10,743 nt of DNA, from the IMG/VR virus record IMGVR_UViG_2690316267_000013. One strand, 5' to 3'. The notes under the pieces are model-generated. The model was not told the DNA's origin. It worked only from the letters and a program-made list of their open reading frames with translations, and ran no database searches. The stretch comes from a virus (taxonomy: Duplodnaviria > Heunggongvirae > Uroviricota > Caudoviricetes). The position numbers and the translations under genes were made by a program. Below, piece after piece: positions 1 to 10,743 of the stretch. Each line of letters starts with the position of its first letter. Position 1 is the first letter of the stretch.

Positions 1-2334
1 TCAGGTTGTTGCAGGGTCGTCACATTTTGGCAGCCAGTCGCCGTAGCTTTCCTCTTTCAGCGTCAGGTTGGTCTGTATCCCCTGTTTGGTATGGCGCTTC
101 TCGTAATTCAGTCCGTATTCCTTCAGCATCACCGGCAGCCCCAGCCCGAACATTTTCAGACTGAGTACGTTCCGGTAGCCGTTTGCCTCCATGTAGGCCA
201 GATAGGCGTGATAGAGGTATTTACGGTAATTGCGCGGGATGATACTCGCGTTCCCCATATACATGCCGCTGGTCTGCGGCAGGGTTTCCAGATAGCCGAT
301 AAAATCAAACGTCGGGTCGGCATCCCGTTTGATGTTCAGCGCCTCGTCTGAGTTCTGCTGGGACTGAAGCAGTGACCGGGCGAGCATCGGGTCGCTGAAC
401 TTCTGCATCAGGTGACGCACGATGACCGCCAGCTCGCGGGTGATTTTGTCCTTAAGCTGCGGGTCGCGCTCCTGCGGGGCTATCTGTTCCGGGAAGTGAA
501 TAATCACCCGCCGGCGTGACACGCCGCCGCTGCGGTCGGTGAAGCGCATCGGGTTATTGTTCACGGCCAGAATCACCGCCGGGATGTGCGTGGAGTACGC
601 ATCCCGGTATTTCGGGTCAACGGACACCGCATCGCCGCCGGTGATGGCCTTGAGTCCGGCTCCGTCGCCGCTCCATTTTTCCTGGTCCGGCAGGCGTATC
701 AGTGAGAAGCCAGTTAACGCGGCACGTTCACGCGGGGATTCCAGCGTCTCAATGGTGGCCGACGTGGCGTTATCTTCCCCGGCCAGCAGGGTGGCTATTT
801 CGGCCATGATACTTTTGCCGCTGCCGCCGGGACCGGTCACCTCCAGAAAGAGCTGCCAGTCGTAGCGGTTTGCCAGCACCATAAACAGTGCGGCCAGAAT
901 CACGTCGCGTTTTTCCGCACGACCACCGGCGGCACGGTCAAGCCAGCGCCAGAACGCGGGGGCGTGGGTTTCCAGCGTTTCCCCTTCCACCGGCGGGGTG
1001 AAATCCACATCGCACAGGGTGCGCATCCAGTGTGACGGACTGTGCGGGTGGAACGTGCCGCTCTGCGTGTCGAGCACGCCGTTACGAAAGCCAATCAGGC
1101 GGCGGGAGGGGGCTTCCTGCTGCGGAATAATCAGCTTCAGGGTGTCCACCACGGAGGCCACCTTCCCGGAGGAGAACGGCGCGCGCAGCCGCTGAAACAG
1201 CCCGGCCACATCCCGGGCAAAGTCCTGTGGTGGCAGCACCTTCCAGACACCATTTTCATAACGGGACAGAAGCTGGCCGTTGGCATCGACCGCGAGCGCC
1301 TCGCCGTAATGCTCATAGATACGCATGGCCTTTTCGCTGGTACTCATGGCGGAAAACTCCGCTTCGCTCATGGTGTCGAACGGGCTTTCAGCCGGTGGCC
1401 GGATGGCATCATAAATGGCCTTACGGGTGGCTTCCCCGCCGTACTGCGTGAAGGCATCATTCCAGTCACCGAAGACCGGCGGCAGGGCAACAACACCTTC
1501 ACACGCATCTGCGGCTGCGGCGGCTTTTGTCTGGCCGTCACCGCTGAGGTCACGGTCAGCAGCAAGGACAATATGACAGGCCGGATGCTTCTGCCGGGCA
1601 AGGCTGGCCAGAGAAAGGAGGTTCACGGAAGAAAGCGCCACCATCACCGTTTCACCGGTCAGGTGATGTACGGTAAGTGCGGTCGCGTATCCCTCCGCTA
1701 TCCACAGACGTTTTCCGGCCTGATTCTGTCCTTCAAGGGTGTGACAGGTGCCCCTGACCTGTCCGCCTTTCAGGGTACGCTTACGGCCGTCAGCACTGAT
1801 TAACTGAAGGTTAACCAGTTCGCCGCTGTCGTCATACAGTGGCACCACAAGGTCACCGGCGCGCCAGCTCACGCCACCGGCTCTGTGTGTGCCGGTCAGC
1901 ATCCGGCATTCCCGGCCGGGAAAGCCCTTGCGGGTCAGGTAGGCGTTACCGGTTCCGGGACGGGTTTTTGCCATCAGGGTTTGTGCCAGTGCGGCGGCGT
2001 TCTTCCGGGCAGCGTCTGTTTCAGCAACGGCGGCGGCCGTCACTGCCGGGTCAGCCGGGGGCAGACTGCCGGTCACGGCAGCCACCTTTGCGGCCGCGTC
2101 GGACGGGGAGACACCAAACACCTTTTCAACCAGTTTCAGGCCGTCACCGGCACCACACTGATTGCAGTACCAGGTGCCGCGCCCCTCCCTGTCATCAAAA
2201 CGGAAGCGGTCACTCCCGCCACAGACCGGACAGGGCTGATGACGGTTTTTCAGCACCTGAATCCCCAGCGCCGGGAGAATACGCGGCCAGTGGCCGAGCG
2301 CATGGCTGACGGTGGCGGTTACGTTCATTTTCAT
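1..2334 (-). CDS. alpha: P4-type alpha replication protein: zinc-ribbon/TOPRIM primase fused to a P-loop helicase, 777 aa
   Basis: N-terminal Cys4 motif (CPVCGG...CNQCG), TOPRIM acidic motif (LAADRD), Walker A (GPGGSGKS). Length is identical to P4 alpha. SD aaggag lies about 9 nt upstream of the ATG at 2332-2334. Stop codon at 1-3. Confidence 0.9.
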   Translation of the reverse strand: MKMNVTATVSHALGHWPRILPALGIQVLKNRHQPCPVCGGSDRFRFDDREGRGTWYCNQCGAGDGLKLVEKVFGVSPSDAAAKVAAVTGSLPPADPAVTAAAVAETDAARKNAAALAQTLMAKTRPGTGNAYLTRKGFPGRECRMLTGTHRAGGVSWRAGDLVVPLYDDSGELVNLQLISADGRKRTLKGGQVRGTCHTLEGQNQAGKRLWIAEGYATALTVHHLTGETVMVALSSVNLLSLASLARQKHPACHIVLAADRDLSGDGQTKAAAAADACEGVVALPPVFGDWNDAFTQYGGEATRKAIYDAIRPPAESPFDTMSEAEFSAMSTSEKAMRIYEHYGEALAVDANGQLLSRYENGVWKVLPPQDFARDVAGLFQRLRAPFSSGKVASVVDTLKLIIPQQEAPSRRLIGFRNGVLDTQSGTFHPHSPSHWMRTLCDVDFTPPVEGETLETHAPAFWRWLDRAAGGRAEKRDVILAALFMVLANRYDWQLFLEVTGPGGSGKSIMAEIATLLAGEDNATSATIETLESPRERAALTGFSLIRLPDQEKWSGDGAGLKAITGGDAVSVDPKYRDAYSTHIPAVILAVNNNPMRFTDRSGGVSRRRVIIHFPEQIAPQERDPQLKDKITRELAVIVRHLMQKFSDPMLARSLLQSQQNSDEALNIKRDADPTFDFIGYLETLPQTSGMYMGNASIIPRNYRKYLYHAYLAYMEANGYRNVLSLKMFGLGLPVMLKEYGLNYEKRHTKQGIQTNLTLKEESYGDWLPKCDDPATT

Positions 2335-2348
2335 GGTGTTGTTCTCCT

Positions 2349-2669
2349 TCAGTGCAGTACCGGCGCTTTTATGTGACGGGCACAGAGTTCATCCATCACA
2401 ACCAGCCCGAGAAAGGACAGCGACGGCGCGGCCTTCAGGGGGCCGGATTCCATTAAATCTTCCAGCAGGGCACAGGCTATCTGACGCCCTTTTTCCTCAC
2501 CGTGCTGGCGCAGATAAAAGCCTTCCAGCTCAGCGGCGATGGCCGCCTCCAGTGACTCAAGGGTGAGATGCGGGTAGCGGTGCTGACGTTCGCACACGGT
2601 CAGCCAGGCACAGGCGACAGCGCGACGGTAAAGGGCAGCGCGTAAGACGGGCGGTAAGGGTGTTTTCAT
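2349..2669 (-). CDS. cnr: 106-aa protein immediately upstream of alpha; Cnr-like (P4 copy-number regulator) by size and synteny
   Basis: ORF of 106 aa with SD gggagg about 7 nt upstream of the ATG. Its stop (2349-2351) overlaps the alpha SD region. Same size and position as P4 orf106/cnr. The functional call is by synteny only. Confidence 0.55.
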
Positions 2670-2804
2670 TTGCTTTCCTCCCTGTGACAGATGACTGCAT
2701 TCCGTGCCGGTTGCATTAACTGATAAGGCATATCTGCGTCTCCTGAAGACGTGCGTATCCCTGCGCGAATACGCACATTTAATTTTTCGGGTGTCGTTTT
2801 TTAA

Positions 2805-3260
2805 TTACAGATAATTGCGGTAACTGTTATCCGGGGTGATTTCCGGGTCAGGCTCCGTGCGGGGAATTTCCCGCCATTCCCGCGCCACCGGTGCCGCCCG
2901 GCTGACCGGAACAGTGTCCTGCGGGTAAATATCCAGATATTTCTCCCGCCATTTCTGTAATTCCGGGTCTCCGGCCATTTCTTTCAGTACCGCATGCCGG
3001 TTTACGGGGCTGCGTTTGAACAGGTCAGGACGGTCACAGGTAAATTCCCGCAGAAAACGCCCCAGCGGGATGTCTGTGGTGCGCCCGTCAGCGAGGATAC
3101 GCACAAGGATACTGAATTTACGGCGGTACGGGTTCCAGACAATGTCCGGGCAGCGGTACGGCATTTCCCACGGAATACCGTCTTCCAGAATGCCGACCAC
3201 GGCCACATCGGGAAAACCGGCAGAACGGTAAATCTCACCGGGCTGGGGAAAATCAAACAT
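2805..3260 (-). CDS. Hypothetical 151-aa left-operon protein (P4 orf151 position and size)
   Basis: ORF of 151 aa. Its ATG (3258-3260) overlaps the stop of the upstream 95-aa gene by 8 nt (ATGTTTGA), suggesting translational coupling. No motif recognised. Confidence 0.6.
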   Translation of the reverse strand: MFDFPQPGEIYRSAGFPDVAVVGILEDGIPWEMPYRCPDIVWNPYRRKFSILVRILADGRTTDIPLGRFLREFTCDRPDLFKRSPVNRHAVLKEMAGDPELQKWREKYLDIYPQDTVPVSRAAPVAREWREIPRTEPDPEITPDNSYRNYL

Positions 3261-3540
3261 GCGTCCTGTCTCCCCGGTCTTTCTGCTGGGCGAGAAAATC
3301 GCGGCACAGGCCTTTGGCTTTCAGCTCATTCAGCACAAAATCAATATCTTCATTCAGGTAGCTGAAAATATGCGGAATGTAGAGCTGATGCAGGCCGGAG
3401 AGTTCACGGTGAATCAAATCACCCCCAACAAACTGGGATACGGCGCTGGCGCGGTTGAGCTTATGGTAAGCCTCAATGCTGAGGTGTTCACGGGCGTCAT
3501 GACGTGCTGAGACGGTCTGAGGGGCTTTTTTATTACGCAC
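3253..3540 (-). CDS. 95-aa protein with GTG start; possible equivalent of P4 epsilon (helper-prophage derepression) by position
   Basis: GTG at 3538-3540 is preceded by a strong SD (GGAGG, 6-nt spacer). It reads to TGA at 3253-3255. The ORF track merges this into a longer 177-aa ORF, but the SD-GTG context supports the 95-aa product. The functional call is positional only. Confidence 0.45.
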
Positions 3541-3730
3541 GGGACACCTCCACCACCGGCAGACGGGCAGCAAGGGAGAGCACATAGTCACGGACAAGGG
3601 AACGGCGGGCGCTGCGTTCATCACCGGCGACGGTGCGAAGCATACAGATACGGGGATGACGGCCTGCGCGACGGACAGCCGCAAACACAAAGACAAATTC
3701 AGGGTGTGAGGGGGTAAGGGTTGTAGCCAT
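3533..3730 (-). CDS. 65-aa first ORF of the left operon, Kil-like by position; its SD overlaps a seqC-like RNA target site
   Basis: ATG at 3728-3730 with SD AAGGAGG (plus-strand 3739-3745). Its stop overlaps the GTG of the next gene (GTGCGTAA). The ORF track extends this frame to 199 aa, but the upstream part is low-complexity and covers the immunity RNA region. Confidence 0.45.
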
Positions 3731-3741
3731 GATGGCAGCCT

Positions 3742-3782
3742 CCTTGAAGTAACAGTTACAGCTACCACTGGAGTTCCTACGC
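3742..3782 (-). promoter_or_regulatory. seqC-like target site (ccttgaagtaac ... gagttcctacgc) complementary to seqB of the candidate CI RNA
   Basis: Shares two sequence blocks with the site at 3963-3990. Both blocks are complementary to 3805-3828. Overlaps the SD of the 65-aa ORF. Confidence 0.5.
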
Positions 3783-3789
3783 TCATGGG

Positions 3790-3875
3790 TGGTAGCCCGG
3801 ACGGGGGTAGGAATACCGGCCTTCAAGGAAACCGGCCAGCCCGAAGGCTGCCCCGCCCGGACCACCATTATCTGA
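3790..3875 (-). ncRNA. cI: Candidate CI-like immunity RNA containing a seqB element (approximate boundaries)
   Basis: Non-coding stretch between the two target-like sites. It contains 3805-3828 (gggggtaggaataccggccttcaagg), the reverse complement of blocks in both flanking sites. A stable hairpin with a UUCG tetraloop on the minus-strand RNA lies at 3837-3850, and a possible closing stem pairs ggtggtccgg with ccgggctaccacc. Ends were not determined. Confidence 0.4.
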
Positions 3876-3962
3876 CAGAGGCTACGGTTTAAAAACCACA
3901 GCCAGAAAAACAGGTGTGCCGAAGCAACGACGTAAAAAAAGACGCATGGCGCGTCATATGTC

Positions 3963-3990
3963 GCCTTGAAGTAACTCGGGTTCCTACGCC
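3963..3990 (-). promoter_or_regulatory. seqA-like target site in the leader of the early leftward transcript
   Basis: ccttgaagtaac at 3964-3975 and ggttcctacgcc at 3979-3990, both complementary to the seqB-like element at 3805-3828. Confidence 0.5.
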
Positions 3991-4018
3991 CGGCTGCCGA
4001 TTTTGCGGCAGCGGAAAA

Positions 4019-4048
4019 ACTATATCCGCAAATGCCGGAAAAAGGCAA
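4019..4048 (-). promoter_or_regulatory. Candidate sigma70 early leftward promoter (PLE-like)
   Basis: On the minus strand: -35 TTGCCT (4043-4048), 18-nt spacer, -10 TATAGT (4019-4024). This would start the transcript about 20 nt upstream of the seqA-like site. By eye only. Confidence 0.35.
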
Positions 4049-4083
4049 GCCAGAAAAAGGGAGTTTTTGCAGAGCGGGCATCA

Positions 4084-4350
4084 TCATGCGTCGTACCCCC
4101 GTTTGCGTCCGGCAATGCGTCCGGCCATCCATGCGGTGACTTCAGAGTGCAGCCAGGCCACATTTTTACCGCCAAGACTCACCTGCGGCGGAAATTCCCC
4201 CTTACGGATGAGTTCATAGATGGTCGAGCGTGACAGGCCGCACAGGTGCATCACTTCCGGCAGACGTAAAAAACGCTCCTGCGTGATGTCCGGCAGCGGC
4301 ATCAGTGGCGTCACAGGGGCGGGAGACGGGGAAGAAAAAACAGCTTGCAT
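4084..4350 (-). CDS. vis: Vis/AlpA-family small HTH DNA-binding protein (late-promoter regulator and excision factor), 88 aa
   Basis: 88-aa ORF with SD gaggt about 7 nt upstream of the ATG. AlpA-like signature (LRLPEV...[16 protein letters not shown]). Same size and position as P4 vis (orf88). Confidence 0.75.
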
Positions 4351-4452
4351 CGGGCTACCTCGTTAATGTCCATACAGCACCGGATAAGTCCGTCCGGCTT
4401 CGGGTAGCGCTTTATTTTGTGAATATTTTTGGCAGACGCAACAGGGGGGATT

Positions 4453-4470
4453 TGTTCCGGCAGCCTTACA
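4453..4470 (-). promoter_or_regulatory. TGT-N12-ACA box (Delta/Ogr-type activator site) for the leftward late promoter (PLL-like) upstream of vis
   Basis: TGTtccggcagccttACA with exact 12-nt spacing, centred about 110 bp upstream of the vis ATG. Confidence 0.4.
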
Positions 4471-4496
4471 ATGACTGTGTGTTTTTTGTTCATTCC

Positions 4497-4525
4497 CACT
4501 TAAAGTCATTTAAAGCCACTTAAAG
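4497..4525. repeat. Three tandem 10-bp repeats CA(C/T)TTAAAG with one-helical-turn periodicity
   Basis: cacttaaag at 4497-4505, catttaaag at 4507-4515, cacttaaag at 4517-4525. Confidence 0.6.
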
Positions 4526-4629
4526 CAATTCGTAATTTTTATAGTGAAATACAAATCGTTTCTTCTTATTCATTCACGGCGAATTAATAAAAACAAACAG
4601 TAGTAAACAGCACAAAAAGTCCATGAGCG

Positions 4630-4733
4630 GGTGAACAGTGGTGAACAGACGGTGAACAGTCATTACTGCGATTGTTCACCCTTTAACTTACTGTATTACT
4701 TATCTTTTTTCTTATGGTGAACAGAGGTGAACA
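4630..4733. repeat. Iteron cluster: six copies of the P4 type-I octamer TGTTCACC (five as GGTGAACA, one inverted); putative alpha-binding origin
   Basis: GGTGAACA at 4630-4637, 4640-4647, 4651-4658, 4716-4723 and 4726-4733; TGTTCACC at 4673-4680. The cluster is flanked by a direct repeat aaacaaacagta at 4591-4602 and 4748-4759. Confidence 0.6.
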
Positions 4734-4812
4734 GTAAAATATAAAAAAACAAACAGTAAGCCGGTTTTTCCTGCGACCTTTTCCTGGCTTGCCGGTCTGA
4801 GGATGAGTCTCC

Positions 4813-4830
4813 TGTGTCAGGGCTGGCACA
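4813..4830 (+). promoter_or_regulatory. TGT-N12-ACA box (Delta/Ogr-type activator site) of the sid late promoter (Psid-like)
   Basis: TGTgtcagggctggcACA with exact 12-nt spacing, centred about 80 bp upstream of the sid ATG, consistent with a -55 activator site. Confidence 0.5.
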
Positions 4831-4902
4831 TCTGCAATGCGTCGTGTTGTTGTCCGGTGTACGTCACAATTTTCTTAATCTGAAGTGACGAGGAGCCGGA
4901 AA

Positions 4903-5637
4903 ATGTCTGACAACACCATCCCTGAATATCTGCAACCCGCACTGGCACAACTGGAAAAGGCCAGAGCCGCTCATCTTGAGAACGCCCGACTGATGGATGA
5001 GACCGTCAAGGCCATTGAACGGGCAGAGCAGGAAAAAAATGCGCTGGCGCAGGCCGACGGAAATGACGCTGATGACTGGCGCACAGCCTTTCGTGCAGCC
5101 GGTGGTGTCCTGAGCGACGAGCTGAAACAGCGCCACATTGAGCGCGTGGCACGCCGGGAGCTGGTACAGGAATATGACAATCTGGCCGTGGTGCTGAATT
5201 TTGAACGTGAACGCCTGAAAGGGGCGTGTGACAGCACGGCCACCGCCTACCGGAAGGCACATCATCACCTTCTGAGTCTGTATGCAGAGCATGAGCTGGA
5301 ACACGCCCTGAATGAAACCTGTGAGGCGCTTGTCCGGGCAATGCATCTGAGTATCCTGGTACAGGAAAATCCGCTCGCCAACACCACCGGCCATCAGGGC
5401 TACGTCGCACCGGAAAAGGCTGTCATGCAGCAGGTGAAATCATCGCTGGAACAGAAAATTAAACAGATGCAAATCAGCCTCACCGGCGAGCCGGTTCTCC
5501 GGCTGACCGGACTGTCAGCGGCAACACTCCCGCACATGGATTATGAGGTGGCAGGCACACCGGCACAGCGCAAGGTGTGGCAGGACAAAATAGACCAGCA
5601 GGGAGCAGAGCTTAAGGCCAGAGGACTGCTGTCATGA
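4903..5637 (+). CDS. sid: Sid, capsid size-determination external scaffold protein, 244 aa
   Basis: ATG at 4903 preceded by SD aggag with a 7-nt spacer; the ORF track starts 18 nt earlier at an in-frame GTG at 4885. Length from the ATG equals P4 Sid. Coiled-coil-like, Ala/Glu/Leu-rich sequence. Stop overlaps the delta start (ATGA). Confidence 0.85.
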   Translation: MSDNTIPEYLQPALAQLEKARAAHLENARLMDETVKAIERAEQEKNALAQADGNDADDWRTAFRAAGGVLSDELKQRHIERVARRELVQEYDNLAVVLNFERERLKGACDSTATAYRKAHHHLLSLYAEHELEHALNETCEALVRAMHLSILVQENPLANTTGHQGYVAPEKAVMQQVKSSLEQKIKQMQISLTGEPVLRLTGLSAATLPHMDYEVAGTPAQRKVWQDKIDQQGAELKARGLLS

Positions 5638-6134
5638 TTTACTGCCCGTCGTGTGGACATGTTGCTCACACCCGTCGCGCACATTTCATGGACGATGGCA
5701 CCAAGATAATGATTGCACAGTGCCGGAATATTTATTGCTCTGCGACATTTGAAGCGAGTGAAAGCTTTTTCTCTGACAGTAAAGATTCAGGAATGGAATA
5801 CATTTCAGGCAAACAGAGATACCGCGATTCACTGACGTCGGCCTCCGGCAGTATGAAACGCCCGAAAAGAATGCTTGTTACCGGATATTGTTGTCGGAGA
5901 TGTAAAGGCCTTGCACTGTCAAGAACATCGCGGCGTCTGTCTCAGGAAGTCACCGAGCGTTTTTATGTGTGCACGGATCCGGGCTGTGGTCTGGTGTTTA
6001 AAACGCTTCAGACCATCACCCGCTTCATTGTCCGCCCGGTCACGCCGGACGAACTGGCAGAACGCCTGCATGAAAAACAGGAACTGCCGCCAGTACGGTT
6101 AAAAACACAATCATATTCGCTGCGTCTGGAATGA
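5634..6134 (+). CDS. delta: Delta, late transcription activator with two Ogr-like zinc-finger modules, 166 aa
   Basis: Two Cys4 modules (CPSCGH...CRNIYC and CRRCKG...CTDPGC). Length equals P4 Delta. Start is coupled to the sid stop. Confidence 0.85.
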   Translation: MIYCPSCGHVAHTRRAHFMDDGTKIMIAQCRNIYCSATFEASESFFSDSKDSGMEYISGKQRYRDSLTSASGSMKRPKRMLVTGYCCRRCKGLALSRTSRRLSQEVTERFYVCTDPGCGLVFKTLQTITRFIVRPVTPDELAERLHEKQELPPVRLKTQSYSLRLE

Positions 6135-6207
6135 GGGCTGCCGGTTAACACCGGCCGTCGCCACACACCGTATTTTTATTCTTCAGCATGATGAGAAAGA
6201 GATAACG

Positions 6208-6780
6208 ATGGAAAGCACAGCCTTACAGCAGGCCTTTGACACCTGTCAGAATAACAAAGCAGCATGGCTGCAACGCAAAAATGAGCTGGCTGCGGCCGAA
6301 CAGGAATATCTGCGGCTTCTGTCAGGAGAAGGCAGAAACGTCAGTCGCCTGGACGAATTACGCAATATTATCGAAGTCAGAAAATGGCAGGTGAATCAGG
6401 CCGCCGGTCGTTATATTCGTTCGCATGAAGCCGTTCAGCACATCAGCATCCGCGACCGGCTGAATGATTTTATGCAGCAGCACGGCACAGCACTGGCGGC
6501 GGCACTGGCACCGGAGCTGATGGGCTACAGTGATCTGACGGCCATTGCCCGAAACTGTGCCATACAGCGTGCCACAGATGCCCTGCGTGAAGCCCTCCTG
6601 TCCTGGCTTGCGAAGGGTGAAAAAATTAATTATTCCGCACAGGATAGCGACATTTTAACGACCATCGGATTCAGGCCTGACGCGGCTTCGGTGGATGACA
6701 GCCGTGAAAAATTCACCCCTGCGCAGAACATGATTTTTTCGCGTAAAAGTGCGCAACTGGCATCACGTCAGTCTGTGTAA
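6208..6780 (+). CDS. psu: Psu, polarity suppression (Rho antagonist) and capsid decoration protein, 190 aa
   Basis: 190-aa ORF, last gene of the sid-delta-psu operon, directly upstream of cos. Same length and position as P4 Psu. Confidence 0.85.
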   Translation: MESTALQQAFDTCQNNKAAWLQRKNELAAAEQEYLRLLSGEGRNVSRLDELRNIIEVRKWQVNQAAGRYIRSHEAVQHISIRDRLNDFMQQHGTALAAALAPELMGYSDLTAIARNCAIQRATDALREALLSWLAKGEKINYSAQDSDILTTIGFRPDAASVDDSREKFTPAQNMIFSRKSAQLASRQSV

Positions 6781-6810
6781 AATTCCCCGAAAATCCGCCC
6801 GTTTTTACTG

Positions 6811-6849
6811 AAAAAAGCCATGCATCGATAAGGTGCATGGCTTTGCATG
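6811..6849. terminator. Hairpin terminator after psu, bidirectional (strong on minus strand, weaker on plus)
   Basis: 9-bp stem agccatgca/tgcatggct (6816-6824 and 6834-6842) with a 9-nt loop. It is flanked by A6 on the left (a U6 tract for minus-strand transcripts) and ttgcatgcgttt on the right. Confidence 0.5.
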
Positions 6850-6944
6850 CGTTTCCCTGCCTCATTTTCTGCAGACCGCGCCATTCCCGGCGCGGTCTGA
6901 GCGTGTCAGTGCAACTGCATTAAAACCGCCCCGCAAAGCGGGCG

Positions 6945-7254: not shown

Positions 7255-8964
7255 ATGAGTATGTTTCAGATATCAGCTGGAGTGTTCTTTGATTTAGATA
7301 AAATAGAAAAACACGATGGCACATTTGTTTTTTATTCAAATGTTGATGTGTCTTTCTCGGTGGAAAACACCTCCCCTCTTTTTAAAGCAAATAAAATAAG
7401 TCATGATGGTATAAACTGTTATGTGGTAAACTATACTCTCCTGACCGAAAAACCAGAACGAATTGAAGCTGGAGTCGTAGTTAGGGCTGGTGATGAGGAT
7501 TATAGGCAACAATTTATTTTATTATGGGAATTCTATTTTGATTGTGTGGCTAGAGTAGAAAAAGAATCGGTTAAAAAAATATGTGCATTATCAAATTTTA
7601 ATAAACATCACTCAAAAATTGCGCTTGAAGTTGCCCCATATTTAGTGGAGATTAATCGAAGAGTTTCATTTGATGATGTCTCTGGGTTTTCTGCTTTTAT
7701 TAAAGATGTAGTGAATCTAAATAGATCTGCCTTTAAATCTTTAATGGCAGCGTTAAAAATAATTAGTGATTCAAAAGAATCATTGTCAACCAACTTTGAC
7801 CTGACTTATTCCATGTTAGTCTATGCCTTGGAGTCTTTGTCTCAAAGAAATGATAACTATAAGTCTGATTGGGATGACTACGATCAAAAAACCAGAGGTG
7901 AATTAGAGTCTGTATTTGAGCATATGCCTGGTGAGGATGTTTGTAAAATTAAATCAATACTTATTGAAGGCAAACAATTCAGATTACAAAAAAGGTTCAA
8001 AGATTTTATACTGAAAAATCTTGAAGAAAATTATTTCAATGAAACAGAGAGATATCCAATCCGCTATAGCTTCCTTAGTAGAGCTTTAGATAATTTATAC
8101 AAAATCAGGTCTTCTTTTGTCCATGAGCTTAAGCCACTTGATGCAATGATCTCGAAAGCCTACAATCCTGTTGGTGATTGTCTGGTTCTTTTTGGCGAAC
8201 CTCACTTCAGTTACTCTGGATTGCTTCGACTTCTTCGCCATGTGATAATAAATTTTTGCCGTAAAAACTACAGTCAAAAAAGAGAGTCTGTTAATTGGGT
8301 GATGGAAACATCGGGTGTAATGGTTGCAGAGATATCTGCACAATATTGGCTCTGGAATGCAGACGGATTTACAGCTAAAAGTATAGCGAAGTGGTTTAGT
8401 GAATACCTAAATATGTTAAATTTAGGCGAAGTCACTGATTTGCAGTCTATCATGGACAAAATTGAGATAATCTATGATCAATCCAAAAAAGAATATAAAA
8501 ATGGGTTGTTGCATTTTTATTTCTTATATAACTTAATGCATAATGGAAATAAGGGTGAATGGCTTGAGTTTGCGAACAAGCGAAGTTCTATACTTGTTTG
8601 TGATATATATTGGTATTCATGCTCTCCATATTTATATAAATCATTTACTAATGTTTCAAATGGTATTGCTGATATAAAAACATTGAGAAACTTTTTGTCT
8701 TGTTTTAACGAATATGATAAAAATAAATTTAAGCCAAATCGTTTAAATCTCCCTGCAATGACCGAAGTAATTATGTTGGCTTGCGCAGCAAATTCATTCT
8801 TCAGAATTGGAATGTATCAAGACTATGTTTTAATGGGCAATAGAGCGATGAGAGAAATTGCTTCAGTAAAAGATGTATTTTATTATATAAAAGAACGATT
8901 AAGTAATTCACAACTTATTGAATTGGACGAGTGCTTGAGATTGTATAGAAAAAAGGGGGGCTAA
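7255..8964 (+). CDS. Low-GC cargo protein of unknown function in the cos-int hotspot (569 aa from the first ATG; 567 aa from the better-placed ATG at 7261); candidate anti-phage or abortive-infection protein
   Basis: Long uninterrupted ORF with SD aagga 6 nt before the ATG at 7261. Composition is AT-rich and Lys/Asn/Ile/Phe/Tyr-rich, contrasting with the GC-rich satellite core. No Walker A and no YxDD motif. One R-x4-H motif (IRSSFVHE, codons at 8104-8127). Occupies the position where P4 carries gop-beta-cII. Confidence 0.8.
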   Translation: MSMFQISAGVFFDLDKIEKHDGTFVFYSNVDVSFSVENTSPLFKANKISHDGINCYVVNYTLLTEKPERIEAGVVVRAGDEDYRQQFILLWEFYFDCVARVEKESVKKICALSNFNKHHSKIALEVAPYLVEINRRVSFDDVSGFSAFIKDVVNLNRSAFKSLMAALKIISDSKESLSTNFDLTYSMLVYALESLSQRNDNYKSDWDDYDQKTRGELESVFEHMPGEDVCKIKSILIEGKQFRLQKRFKDFILKNLEENYFNETERYPIRYSFLSRALDNLYKIRSSFVHELKPLDAMISKAYNPVGDCLVLFGEPHFSYSGLLRLLRHVIINFCRKNYSQKRESVNWVMETSGVMVAEISAQYWLWNADGFTAKSIAKWFSEYLNMLNLGEVTDLQSIMDKIEIIYDQSKKEYKNGLLHFYFLYNLMHNGNKGEWLEFANKRSSILVCDIYWYSCSPYLYKSFTNVSNGIADIKTLRNFLSCFNEYDKNKFKPNRLNLPAMTEVIMLACAANSFFRIGMYQDYVLMGNRAMREIASVKDVFYYIKERLSNSQLIELDECLRLYRKKGG

Positions 8965-8980
8965 CCCCTTTTATTTTTAA
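8949..8980. terminator. Bidirectional intrinsic terminator shared by the convergent cargo and int genes
   Basis: aaaagggggg-ctaa-cccctttt hairpin (G/C stem 8955-8968) with T-tracts on both sides (tttatttttaa on plus; U6 on minus). The stop codons of both genes (8962-8964 and 8961-8963) lie inside the loop. Confidence 0.5.
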
Positions 8981-10157
8981 CGTATTCTCCCCACCAATCC
9001 ATCAATTCAATTCGCTGCACGAGATAAGTAGAACGATTGTATGCTTTTCTAACTTCATTTTTATCACTGTGGGCTAAGGCAGACTCGATAACATCAGGAT
9101 TTAATCCAGCTTCATTCATGGCTGTACTTGCTATTGAACGTAATCCATGGGCAACTAATTTTCCGCCAAAACCAATACGTTTTAAAGCTGCATTTGCAGT
9201 CTGACTGTTCATTGGTTTCTTTGGGTCATTCCGACTCGGAAAAACATATTCACGATGAGCACTAATAGGCTTCATCACATTAAGAATCTCTAATGCCTGA
9301 GATGATAGAGGAATTATGTGTTCCCGTTTAGCCTTCATCCGTTCGGCAGGAATCGTCCAGAGCTTTGCATGAAGATCGATTTCTTCCCACCGAGTACTGG
9401 AGGCTTCAGAAGGGCGCACAAGAGTCAGGAGTTGCCATTCAATTAGACAGCGAGTCGGGATAGACAGATTTGACATGACTAAAGAACGCATCAGCTTTGG
9501 TAATTCTTCAGGTCGAAGCGTCGGCATGTTTTGTTTTTTTGGCTTTTCGAAGGCCATGCCAACACCTGATGCTGGGTTTGCATCAATCAAGCCAGTGTTA
9601 ACCGCATAAATCATTATTTCGTTAATGCGTTGCACCAGACGACGTACAGTCTCTAATGCCCCACGAGCTTTGACTGGCTCAAGTGCTTCGACCAATGTTC
9701 TAGCTTTGATCTGCTGAACGGGCATCTCACCAACGGCGGGGAATACATCTTTTTCCAATGAGCGCCAAATATCTTTTGCATAATCAGGGGTAACACTTTT
9801 GCTTTTGAGCTGAAACCAATTAGCGGCGACCGTCGAGAAAATACTGTCCTGTGCGATTTGCTGCTGTTCCTCTGCAATTTCAGCTTGAATTTGCGGGTCA
9901 ATTCCGTTGGCTAACAAGGAAAGGTAATCCGCTCTTAAGCGTCGGGCGTCAGCAAGTGAAAGGGCTGGGAAGGCTCCTAGCCCCATCATTGTCCGTTGCT
10001 TTGTTGCCGGACGTTGATAACGGAAACGCCATAACTTCTTACCGTTCGTTTTAACGAGTAGAAAAAGACCATCGCCATCATGCAACGTTAGATCCTTTTC
10101 TAACGCTTTAGCGCGCAGTACTTCTGTGTTGGTCAGGGGGCGTGTCGTTCTTGCCAA
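8961..10157 (-). CDS. int: P4-type tyrosine integrase (N-terminal arm-binding domain plus catalytic domain), 398 aa, TTG start
   Basis: N-terminus typical of P4-family integrases (LTNTEV...GLFLLVKTNGKKLWRFRYQ...LGAFPALSLADAR). Catalytic-type HGLR and C-terminal Tyr region (RKAYNRSTY). SD gaaggag lies 8 nt upstream of the TTG at 10155-10157. Adjacent to and co-oriented with ssrA. Confidence 0.9.
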   Translation of the reverse strand: MARTTRPLTNTEVLRAKALEKDLTLHDGDGLFLLVKTNGKKLWRFRYQRPATKQRTMMGLGAFPALSLADARRLRADYLSLLANGIDPQIQAEIAEEQQQIAQDSIFSTVAANWFQLKSKSVTPDYAKDIWRSLEKDVFPAVGEMPVQQIKARTLVEALEPVKARGALETVRRLVQRINEIMIYAVNTGLIDANPASGVGMAFEKPKKQNMPTLRPEELPKLMRSLVMSNLSIPTRCLIEWQLLTLVRPSEASSTRWEEIDLHAKLWTIPAERMKAKREHIIPLSSQALEILNVMKPISAHREYVFPSRNDPKKPMNSQTANAALKRIGFGGKLVAHGLRSIASTAMNEAGLNPDVIESALAHSDKNEVRKAYNRSTYLVQRIELMDWWGEYVKNKRG

Positions 10158-10176
10158 TTTGGCCGCTCCTTCATGA

Positions 10177-10230
10177 ATTGGTATACGCGTTTAGGTATAC
10201 ATCCTACCGTATACCTAAACGTATACCAAT
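10177..10230. promoter_or_regulatory. Imperfect palindrome with four GGTATAC motifs between the int SD and ssrA; candidate Int/Vis operator or attP arm-type sites
   Basis: Left arm attggtatacgcgtttaggtatac (10177-10200) and right arm gtatacctaaacgtataccaat (10209-10230) are near-perfect reverse complements separated by 8 bp. GGTATAC occurs at 10180-10186 and 10194-10200, and inverted at 10209-10215 and 10222-10228. Confidence 0.5.
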
Positions 10231-10271
10231 AATCACTGGATTTAGCTGGATATCCTCGGACAACGGTAGAC

Positions 10272-10306
10272 ACAAAAAAGCCCGCAGAGCTTGTGCTATG
10301 CGGGCT
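10272..10306 (-). terminator. Intrinsic terminator downstream of ssrA, lying inside the element
   Basis: 8-bp stem agcccgca/tgcgggct (10279-10286 and 10299-10306) with a 12-nt loop, followed on the minus strand by UUUUUGUG (plus 10271-10278). Confidence 0.5.
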
Positions 10307-10341
10307 TTCAGGATTTCTCCGGACGTATCCGGAAGAGCAAG

Positions 10342-10704
10342 TGGTGGAGCTGGCGGGAGTTGAACCCGCGTCCGAAATTCCTACATCCTCGGTACTACAT
10401 GCTTAGTCAGTCTTTACATTCGCTTGCCAGCTGCGGACGGACACGCCACTAACAAACTAGCCTGATTAAGTTTTAACGCTTCAACCCCAGGCAGGGCTTC
10501 CACGCGATCTCTTTTGGGTTTGACCTCTCTTGATCCCCGTCCTAAGAGCGGAGGCTAGGGAGAGAGGGCTCTAAGCAGGTTATTAAGCTGCTAAAGCGTA
10601 GTTTTCGTCGTTTGCGACTATTTTTTGCGGCTTTTTACGAGGCCAACCGCCCCTCGGCATGCACCTTGGGTTTCGCAAATCCCGTCGAATCCAGAATCAG
10701 CCCC
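10342..10704 (-). ncRNA. ssrA: tmRNA (SsrA), 363 nt, enterobacterial type
   Basis: The reverse complement reads GGGGCTGATTCTGGATTCGACGGG ... and ends ...GTTCAACTCCCGCCAGCTCCACCA, matching E. coli tmRNA as I recall it. It includes the tag-peptide reading frame GCAAACGACGAAAACTACGCTTTAGCAGCTTAA (ANDENYALAA stop) at 10583-10615. Confidence 0.95.
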
Positions 10705-10743
10705 AATGTGTAAAGGTAAGTATACCAGATTTATGAGCGCCAT
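10705..10743 (-). promoter_or_regulatory. ssrA promoter region (-10 TATACT at 10719-10724 on the minus strand; -35 truncated by the window edge)
   Basis: TATACT lies 15-20 nt upstream of the mature tmRNA 5' end, consistent with a short precursor leader. Confidence 0.35.

Follow-up and report, generated by a model that had tools for sequence, protein, structure and literature searches.

Which protein reads the 54-bp imperfect palindrome, with its four copies of the motif GGTATAC, that precedes the integrase gene (int) of this satellite prophage? The window, i.e., the whole 10,743-bp stretch of DNA that was analyzed, holds int, the adjoining ssrA gene, and the gene for the excisionase Vis. The original prediction for this DNA offered three functions for the palindrome: arm-type integrase sites, an operator for int autoregulation, or an operator for Vis. 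Comparison with other elements strongly favored the arm-type sites and made autoregulation plausible, while Vis was an unlikely reader of GGTATAC. We consider it likely that the palindrome comprises P-arm sites for Int, bridged with the core, that also act as an Int-bound operator shutting off int, with Vis acting at neighboring nTCCrn boxes. This arrangement is most likely an ordinary feature already known from phage P4.

The window was 100% identical to Escherichia coli NZ_CP144930 and two sister strains, and strain ATCC 8739 (locus L001) is a close relative, about 98% identical across most of the window. Positions 1 to 6944 had approximately 98% identity to satellite phage P4, from alpha through psu. 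The window is a P4-type satellite prophage at ssrA, with an int/att module other than that of P4. Vis was identical to P4 ORF88/Vis at 87 of 88 residues (99%), whereas Int was only 36% identical to P4 Int and was 60% identical to IntA of the cryptic prophage CP4-57. The N-terminal Arm DNA-binding domain of Int spans residues 8 to 91 (Pfam Arm-DNA-bind_3, E = 9.6e-23).

Between psu/cos and int, where P4 has gop-beta-cII, there is a plus-strand open reading frame of 569 amino acids (7255 to 8964), for which a Pfam search matched no family. The psu/cos-int interval is a variable anti-phage defense hotspot of P4-like satellites. A 70-bp segment (3858 to 3927) within the P4 immunity region (cI/ash/icd) had no blastn match to P4 (8493 to 8607) or to the ATCC 8739 copy, with flanks about 98% identical. 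RefSeq annotates a partial ash pseudogene and a short Icd-like coding sequence there, and the segment may represent another allele of the immunity region or result from a rearrangement. Defense hotspots of P4 are mentioned, with no location given, in the abstract of PMC13586616. A search of a plasmid collection returned only mislabeled chromosomal pieces.

The int gene adjoins its target RNA gene and is transcribed away from ssrA, with a 184-bp gap between the tmRNA 3' end and the int start (Table 1). The palindrome does lie directly upstream of the int Shine-Dalgarno sequence (SD), as had been proposed, followed on the minus strand by the SD and then the start codon. The unusual TTG start was also confirmed, because RefSeq uses the same start and it aligns with residue 1 of CP4-57 IntA. 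At the inferred start position, close relatives have GTG and more distant ones have ATG. A weak TTG start may be expected to lower Int expression. Just past the regenerated ssrA 3' end the element supplies an intrinsic terminator (GGGCTTTTTT), which is kept in relatives and should block read-through from ssrA into int. Because this terminator lies between the tmRNA 3' end and the palindrome, any int promoter would be expected within approximately positions 10158 to 10272.

The palindrome itself is real, with two GGTATAC motifs on each strand and near-perfect symmetry. A 2-nt CG bulge on the left is the only departure of its two arms from perfect reverse complementarity, and a repeat search recovered two perfect inverted pairs within it, of 13 nt (I3) and 11 nt (I7), both 100% identical. 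The whole window contains five copies of GGTATAC against an expectation of 0.53; at least five copies were found in none of 200 shuffles. The predicted fold was -38.7 kcal/mol as RNA (z = -6.8) and -18.4 kcal/mol as DNA (z = -7.1), and neither value was matched in 200 shuffles. The fifth motif (10720 to 10726, minus strand) belongs to the host DNA. It is part of TGGTATACT, 16 nt before the 5' end of the tmRNA gene, which resembles the extended -10 element of the ssrA promoter. This copy is probably a coincidence rather than an Int site.

Table 1. Features of the int-ssrA region and of the P4 attachment site used for comparison
Feature	Position	Strand	Remarks
vis, AlpA-family excisionase	4084-4350	-	Pfam Phage_AlpA, 7.3e-21
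int, P4-family tyrosine integrase	8961-10157	-	398 aa; Pfam Arm-DNA-bind_3, Phage_int_M, Phage_integrase
int start codon, TTG	10157-10155	-	8 nt past SD
int SD, AAGGAG	10171-10166	-	5 nt past palindrome end (10177)
Palindrome, left arm	10177-10200	+	ATTGGTATACGCGTTTAGGTATAC
Palindrome, center	10201-10208	+	catcctac, 8 nt
Palindrome, right arm	10209-10230	+	GTATACCTAAACGTATACCAAT
GGTATAC positions	10180, 10194	+
GGTATAC positions	10209, 10221	-
Arm-type unit 1	10220-10229	-	int-sense TTGGTATACG; nearest the core
Arm-type unit 2	10208-10217	-	int-sense TAGGTATACG; 12 nt after unit 1
Arm-type unit 3, inverted	10192-10201	+	TAGGTATACA; least conserved unit
Arm-type unit 4, inverted	10178-10187	+	TTGGTATACG; 6 nt upstream of SD in int sense
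Proposed -35 of Pint, TTGGTA	10229-10224	-	First six bases of unit 1
Proposed -10 of Pint, TAGGAT	10201-10206	-	Palindrome center; 17-nt spacer from TTGGTA
Three direct nTCCrn boxes	10236-10261	-	10-bp period; between ssrA terminator and unit 1
nTCCrn box GTCCGA	10261-10256	-
nTCCrn box ATCCAG	10251-10246	-
nTCCrn box ATCCAG	10241-10236	-
Intrinsic terminator, element supplied	10273-10308	-	Inverted pair I5; just past regenerated ssrA 3' end
tmRNA 3' end, core of int-proximal attachment site	10342-10365	-	ARAGORN, Rfam
tmRNA gene (ssrA)	10342-10704	-	ARAGORN, Rfam
P4 arm repeat (X51522)	3915-3926		Opposite strand; overlaps int start
P4 arm repeats, tandem two (X51522)	3942-3965
P4 core (X51522)	4078-4097		20 bp
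P4 arm repeats, second tandem two (X51522)	4151-4174		53 bp beyond core

Probable arm-type sites on both sides of the ssrA core

Among the closest known systems are the "attP arm sequence repeats" of P4, entered as 12-bp features in its record (X51522), and the P4 int promoter (Pint), which Int and Vis repress (Pierson and Kahn 1987, Cali 2004, and Piazzolla 2006). Both elements have the gene order alpha ... att ... int, a tandem pair of units by int with inversion toward the int start, and a core supplied by a small RNA gene at its 3' end, from the CCA onward. The core and the unit nearest to it are 112 bp apart both in this element (10229 to 10342) and in P4 (3965 to 4078), the two P arms align without gaps over this 112-bp stretch, and the units have a 12-bp period like that of the annotated P4 tandem repeats. 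Given the common distance and the ungapped alignment, the palindrome corresponds by position to the P-arm repeats of P4. The two elements differ in their targets (leuX in P4, ssrA here) and in their int-sense units (TTGGGGGCAT in P4, TTGGTATACG and TAGGTATACG here). P4 has one inverted unit, which lies over the start codon, whereas the element described here has two, upstream of the SD, which complete the near-perfect palindrome.

Arm-type repeats would be expected at the other end of the element as well, and they were found there. A 22-nt double unit, GTATACCTAATCGTATACCAAT, which is identical to 10209 to 10230 at 21 of 22 positions, is located on the same strand, outside the window and 431 bp from its position 1 (NZ_CP144930, L083 1070 to 1091) and is also present in ATCC 8739. 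The arm repeats are different from the core and are found at both ends of the integrated element. Approximately 52 to 53 nt outward of the far-end pair there is a core that resembles the ssrA 3' end (GCTGGCGGAGTTTGAA on the plus strand); the equivalent distance in P4 is 53 bp, again with a second tandem pair on that side. In other genera the far-end core is a clean ATTCAGACTCCGCCAGC(CCACCA). The E. coli copy is degenerate, with two 1-nt deletions (L083 996 to 1015, L001 7361 to 7380), which makes the excision competence of this copy uncertain. This degenerate copy adjoins ypjA and remnants of the CP4-57 region. A search of both arms with the strict IHF consensus WATCAANNNNTTR gave no match, whereas P4 has an IHF site. 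A literature search for GGTATAC in connection with integrases returned nothing relevant, and a paper on promoter switching in ICEKp1 was without arm-site content.

These comparisons strongly support the four GGTATAC units as int-side (P-arm) arm-type sites that would be read by the element's own Int. What the comparison shows directly is how the repeats are arranged, that a copy lies at the far end, that the geometry is that of P4, and that the motif covaries with the N-terminal domain of Int; Int binding itself, the position of the promoter, repression, and the Vis sites are deduced from it. Int would use its N-terminal arm-binding domain to read the four P-arm units and the fifth and sixth units on the other arm, outside the window. 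In integration and excision, Int molecules would connect these arm sites with the core that the 3' end of ssrA provides. Phage lambda offers a likeness, in that its heterobivalent Int uses its N-terminal domain to bind arm repeats flanking the core (P1, P2, and P'1 to P'3), and lambda Xis sites adjoin an arm site. However, lambda Int has an arm-binding domain of another family, the spacing of the lambda sites is different, and lambda int has no promoter within the attachment site and is not known to be autoregulated in such a manner.

Motif classes and the Int N-terminal domain

A search with the Int protein against one genome per species yielded 79 loci with Int identities of 47% to 92%. Most were from Enterobacterales, with the addition of Colwellia and an Alteromonadaceae genome. 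About 48 of the loci had a P4 alpha-like primase, and 47 had a Vis-like gene. The repeats are also present in homologous elements, with the layout found in about 60 relatives from many genera. The 62 distinct upstream sequences had a constant order of terminator, three TCC boxes, unit 1, unit 2 (beginning 12 nt after unit 1), center, inverted units 3 and 4, and SD. The 7-mer of the units was GGTATAC in 31 of these sequences, GGTACAC in 23, and GGCCTAC in 5. Units 1, 2, and 4 carried an identical 7-mer in 53 of the 62 relatives and switched as a set, while the 7-mer of unit 3 was that of unit 2 in only 13. Therefore, the repeat family is general, and the perfect four-unit palindrome is a trait of the lineage to which the window belongs.

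More distant relatives had motifs of their own. The Colwellia locus, with an Int 55% identical, has the motif TAGTAACA in a similar layout, and the Alteromonadaceae genome, with an Int 47% identical, has TAGTACCA. Read by eye, the regions upstream of int in the Alteromonadaceae genome, P4, and CP4-57 had a like layout. In the Pectobacterium relatives L042, L045, and L047, unit 4 is separated from the SD by one or two additional inverted GTATACCAAT units, which bring the int-side total to five or six.

Apart from ATCC 8739, 16 relatives had a same-strand pair at the far end, 1.6 to 11 kb downstream of int, and in 15 of these, Colwellia included, the motif of the pair was the locus's own int-side motif. 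The exception, L044 (Citrobacter amalonaticus), combines an int of the GGTACAC class with a far-end pair of the GGTATAC class at +7484 from the int start. In this locus the next P arm is truncated, exactly at unit 1. L044 may be a hybrid or decayed element that is incapable of excision.

To relate the motifs to Int, loci were grouped by motif class (GGTATAC, 27 loci; GGTACAC, 22; GGCCTAC, 5), and a residue was considered class discriminating if it was at least 90% fixed inside every class and different between classes. There were 19 such residues, 17 of them within amino acids 1 to 100 and none within amino acids 201 to 398. Between-class Int identity was 0.60 to 0.65 over amino acids 1 to 100, compared with 0.72 to 0.85 elsewhere, and within-class identity was about even along the whole protein. 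This pattern is what co-evolution of a DNA-reading domain and its sites would produce. Physical linkage could account for part of the association, because in the circular form attP is no more than approximately 600 bp from the 5' end of int, and the two might be inherited jointly as a module. However, linkage cannot account for the same base change at the same position in five separate units.

Candidate int promoter and candidate Vis boxes, and alternative functions

The combination of TTGGTA, a 17-nt spacer, and TAGGAT inside the palindrome is probably Pint, with a predicted transcription start near position 10194. The hexamer at the palindrome center fits TAnnnT in 60 of 62 relatives (most often TAGGAT, 13; TATACT, 13; TAAGAT, 10; TATAAT, 9; and TATCAT, 5), and in relatives with GGTACAC units it is TATAAT or TATACT. 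A sigma-70 consensus scan of positions 9900 to 10743 at a threshold of 9/12 called no promoter, the proposed elements scoring 8/12. Because the scan called nothing, it is conservation that argues for this promoter.

With the Pint elements inside the palindrome, Int bound there would be expected to repress its own gene. Unit 1 would overlie the -35 element and unit 2 the spacer, with units 3 and 4 spanning the first 20 or so nucleotides of the transcript. Int on the palindrome would exclude RNA polymerase and shut off int transcription, and this repression, added to the effect of the TTG start, would hold Int at a low level in the lysogen. Autoregulation of Int via the palindrome is plausible by analogy with P4 and with KplE1 of E. 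coli K-12. According to PMC7286903, which cites Piazzolla 2006 and Cali 2004, Pint of P4 is repressed by Int and by Vis. In KplE1, IntS represses its own promoter through arm sites that overlap the -10 element, and TorI, the recombination directionality factor (RDF), also represses PintS (PMC2951348). The KplE1 attL further resembles the arrangement proposed here in that int adjoins an RNA-gene target, the attachment region encloses the promoter, and RDF sites adjoin arm sites (PMC2951348). It differs in integrase lineage, target (argW), and RDF family, and binding and repression were shown there by experiment. For the P4-family IntS of ICEMlSymR7A, there are arm sites P1 to P5 with the consensus TGKTGGTATC, which has TGGTAT in common with the motif found here; attP-bound IntS blocks intS transcription, and the RDF binds beside an arm site (PMC11963761). 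Unlike the satellite, ICEMlSymR7A is a Mesorhizobium ICE with a tRNA-gene target, and its RdfS activates intS when the element is integrated (PMC11963761).

RDF sites are typically direct repeats one helix turn (10 to 11 bp) apart (PMC7498355). The nTCCrn boxes adjoining unit 1 have this form and are common to elements with the same RDF, whereas the GGTATAC units do not fit this description. The corresponding boxes in P4 are TTCCGA, GTCCGT, and ATCCGG, and the boxes are also conserved in the consensus line of the 62-sequence alignment. A footprint of P4 Vis within attP has been reported (PMC2603039). The nTCCrn boxes are probably the sites of Vis/AlpA.

Three other functions for the palindrome were weighed. 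The GGTATAC units might be the operator of Vis, or of another regulator of the element or host, rather than Int sites. P4 Vis does bind the attP region, in which the palindrome lies, and does repress Pint, but P4, with a near-identical Vis, has GGGGGCA arm repeats and no GGTATAC. Vis was rejected as the GGTATAC reader for this reason. The 12-bp period and partial inversion of the units are also not those of usual RDF sites, a host factor would not be expected to have a motif that varies among relatives in related hosts, and the motif tracks the Int N-terminal domain. Taken together, these points make an operator for Vis or any such regulator extremely improbable. A second proposal is that the four units are Int sites used for recombination only, with the int promoter elsewhere or unaffected and no autoregulation. 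Many systems do have arm sites without a regulatory role, the far-end pair is itself a purely recombinational use of the motif, and the failure of the consensus scan to call a promoter would be as expected. However, the terminator and the SD leave only about 100 bp for an int promoter, half of which is filled by the palindrome, and TAnnnT is kept at the center in nearly all relatives, as TATAAT or TATACT in those with GGTACAC units. In addition, the integrases of P4, KplE1, and PAI I536, which have the same gene layout, are autoregulated. We therefore regard a role in recombination only as unlikely, but as the most serious of the alternatives.

The palindrome might instead act through its structure, as an RNA hairpin in the int leader that affects stability, termination, or translation or as a DNA cruciform, with protein sites secondary. 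The very stable RNA fold reported above speaks for this explanation; the relatives' RNA folds range from -17 to -32 kcal/mol, and pairing in the outer stem is kept at 95%, three of its positions showing double changes. In P4 lysogens, Piazzolla and coworkers in 2006 reportedly observed short 5' int transcripts. P4 Vis has been described as RNA binding, too (PMC2951348, PMC2603039). Yet pairing follows the units, at 95% in the outer units and 86% in the inner units but 41% in the spacers, and inverted copies of any co-evolving protein site would give the same pattern. A hairpin leaves unexplained why units 1 and 2 are direct copies, why the double unit recurs approximately 10 kb away at the far end and covaries, and why the center is promoter-like. 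Unit 3 equals unit 2 in only 13 of 62 relatives, no T-run follows the stem, and a transcript from the proposed promoter, if that promoter is correct, would begin within the palindrome and so not include its 5' arm. The Rfam search gave only tmRNA above threshold; sub-threshold matches of the palindrome to miRNA-like hairpins are due to chance. The hairpin was therefore rejected as the main selected feature, on the grounds that pairing tracks units rather than spacers and that there are direct and far-end copies. A structural role in place of protein sites is quite improbable, and there is a small probability of a secondary one.

Reading the palindrome as Int arm sites with a promoter inside gives it a concrete function and maps the attachment site, with its core, both arms, candidate Vis boxes, and probable int promoter. 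The mapped site belongs to a widespread family of ssrA-targeting P4-like satellites. It leaves the current picture of how P4-type integrases work unchanged.

Divergent arm motifs at a shared target

The most interesting by-product of the comparison is a natural series of arm motifs among integrases with one chromosomal target. CP4-57 of E. coli K-12 is a further member of this kind. It has the ssrA target, a terminator, and phased TCC boxes like those described here. Its unit is different, however (TAGGCCCA), and it is an island that is not a P4-type satellite. Upstream of intA (L082 760 to 850) there are TTAGGCCCATTG and ATAGGCCCAACG as direct units, followed by CGTTGGGCCTAAA as an inverted unit, and TTGATA and TATTGT lie across the units with a 17-nt spacing. 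No description of CP4-57 arm sites was found in the literature searched.

The pairing of motif variants with changes in the Int N-terminal domain provides a data set for the specificity code of arm binding. One tentative idea, which we regard as possible but doubtful, is that the many integrase lineages competing for the ssrA 3' end have diversified their arm code (GGTATAC, GGTACAC, GGCCTAC, TAGGCCCA, GGACCCA...) by a few N-terminal changes, selected for orthogonality of co-resident elements. Under this idea, candidate specificity positions in Int would be residues 11, 13, 18, 23, 52, 54, 57, 59, and 67. If it is true, satellites and islands could lie in tandem such that neither integrase excises, mis-joins, or cross-represses its neighbor, and the tightest version of the operator would be that of the window's lineage, in which the four units form a fully symmetrical palindrome. 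The motif series could also guide the design of orthogonal integrases with one common chromosomal target.

Tandem arrays at ssrA were observed in L006, L038, and L063, in which the far end of one element is directly followed by the terminator, boxes, and units of a second that belongs to another arm class. In L006 an element of the GGTATAC type is followed by one of the GGTACAC class (approximately +10337 and +10556 from the int start), and in L038 a GGTACAC element is followed by one of the GGTATAC class. The GGTATAC-type far end in L063 is followed by GGACCCA-type units. At other loci, the far end adjoins a CP4-57-like junction.
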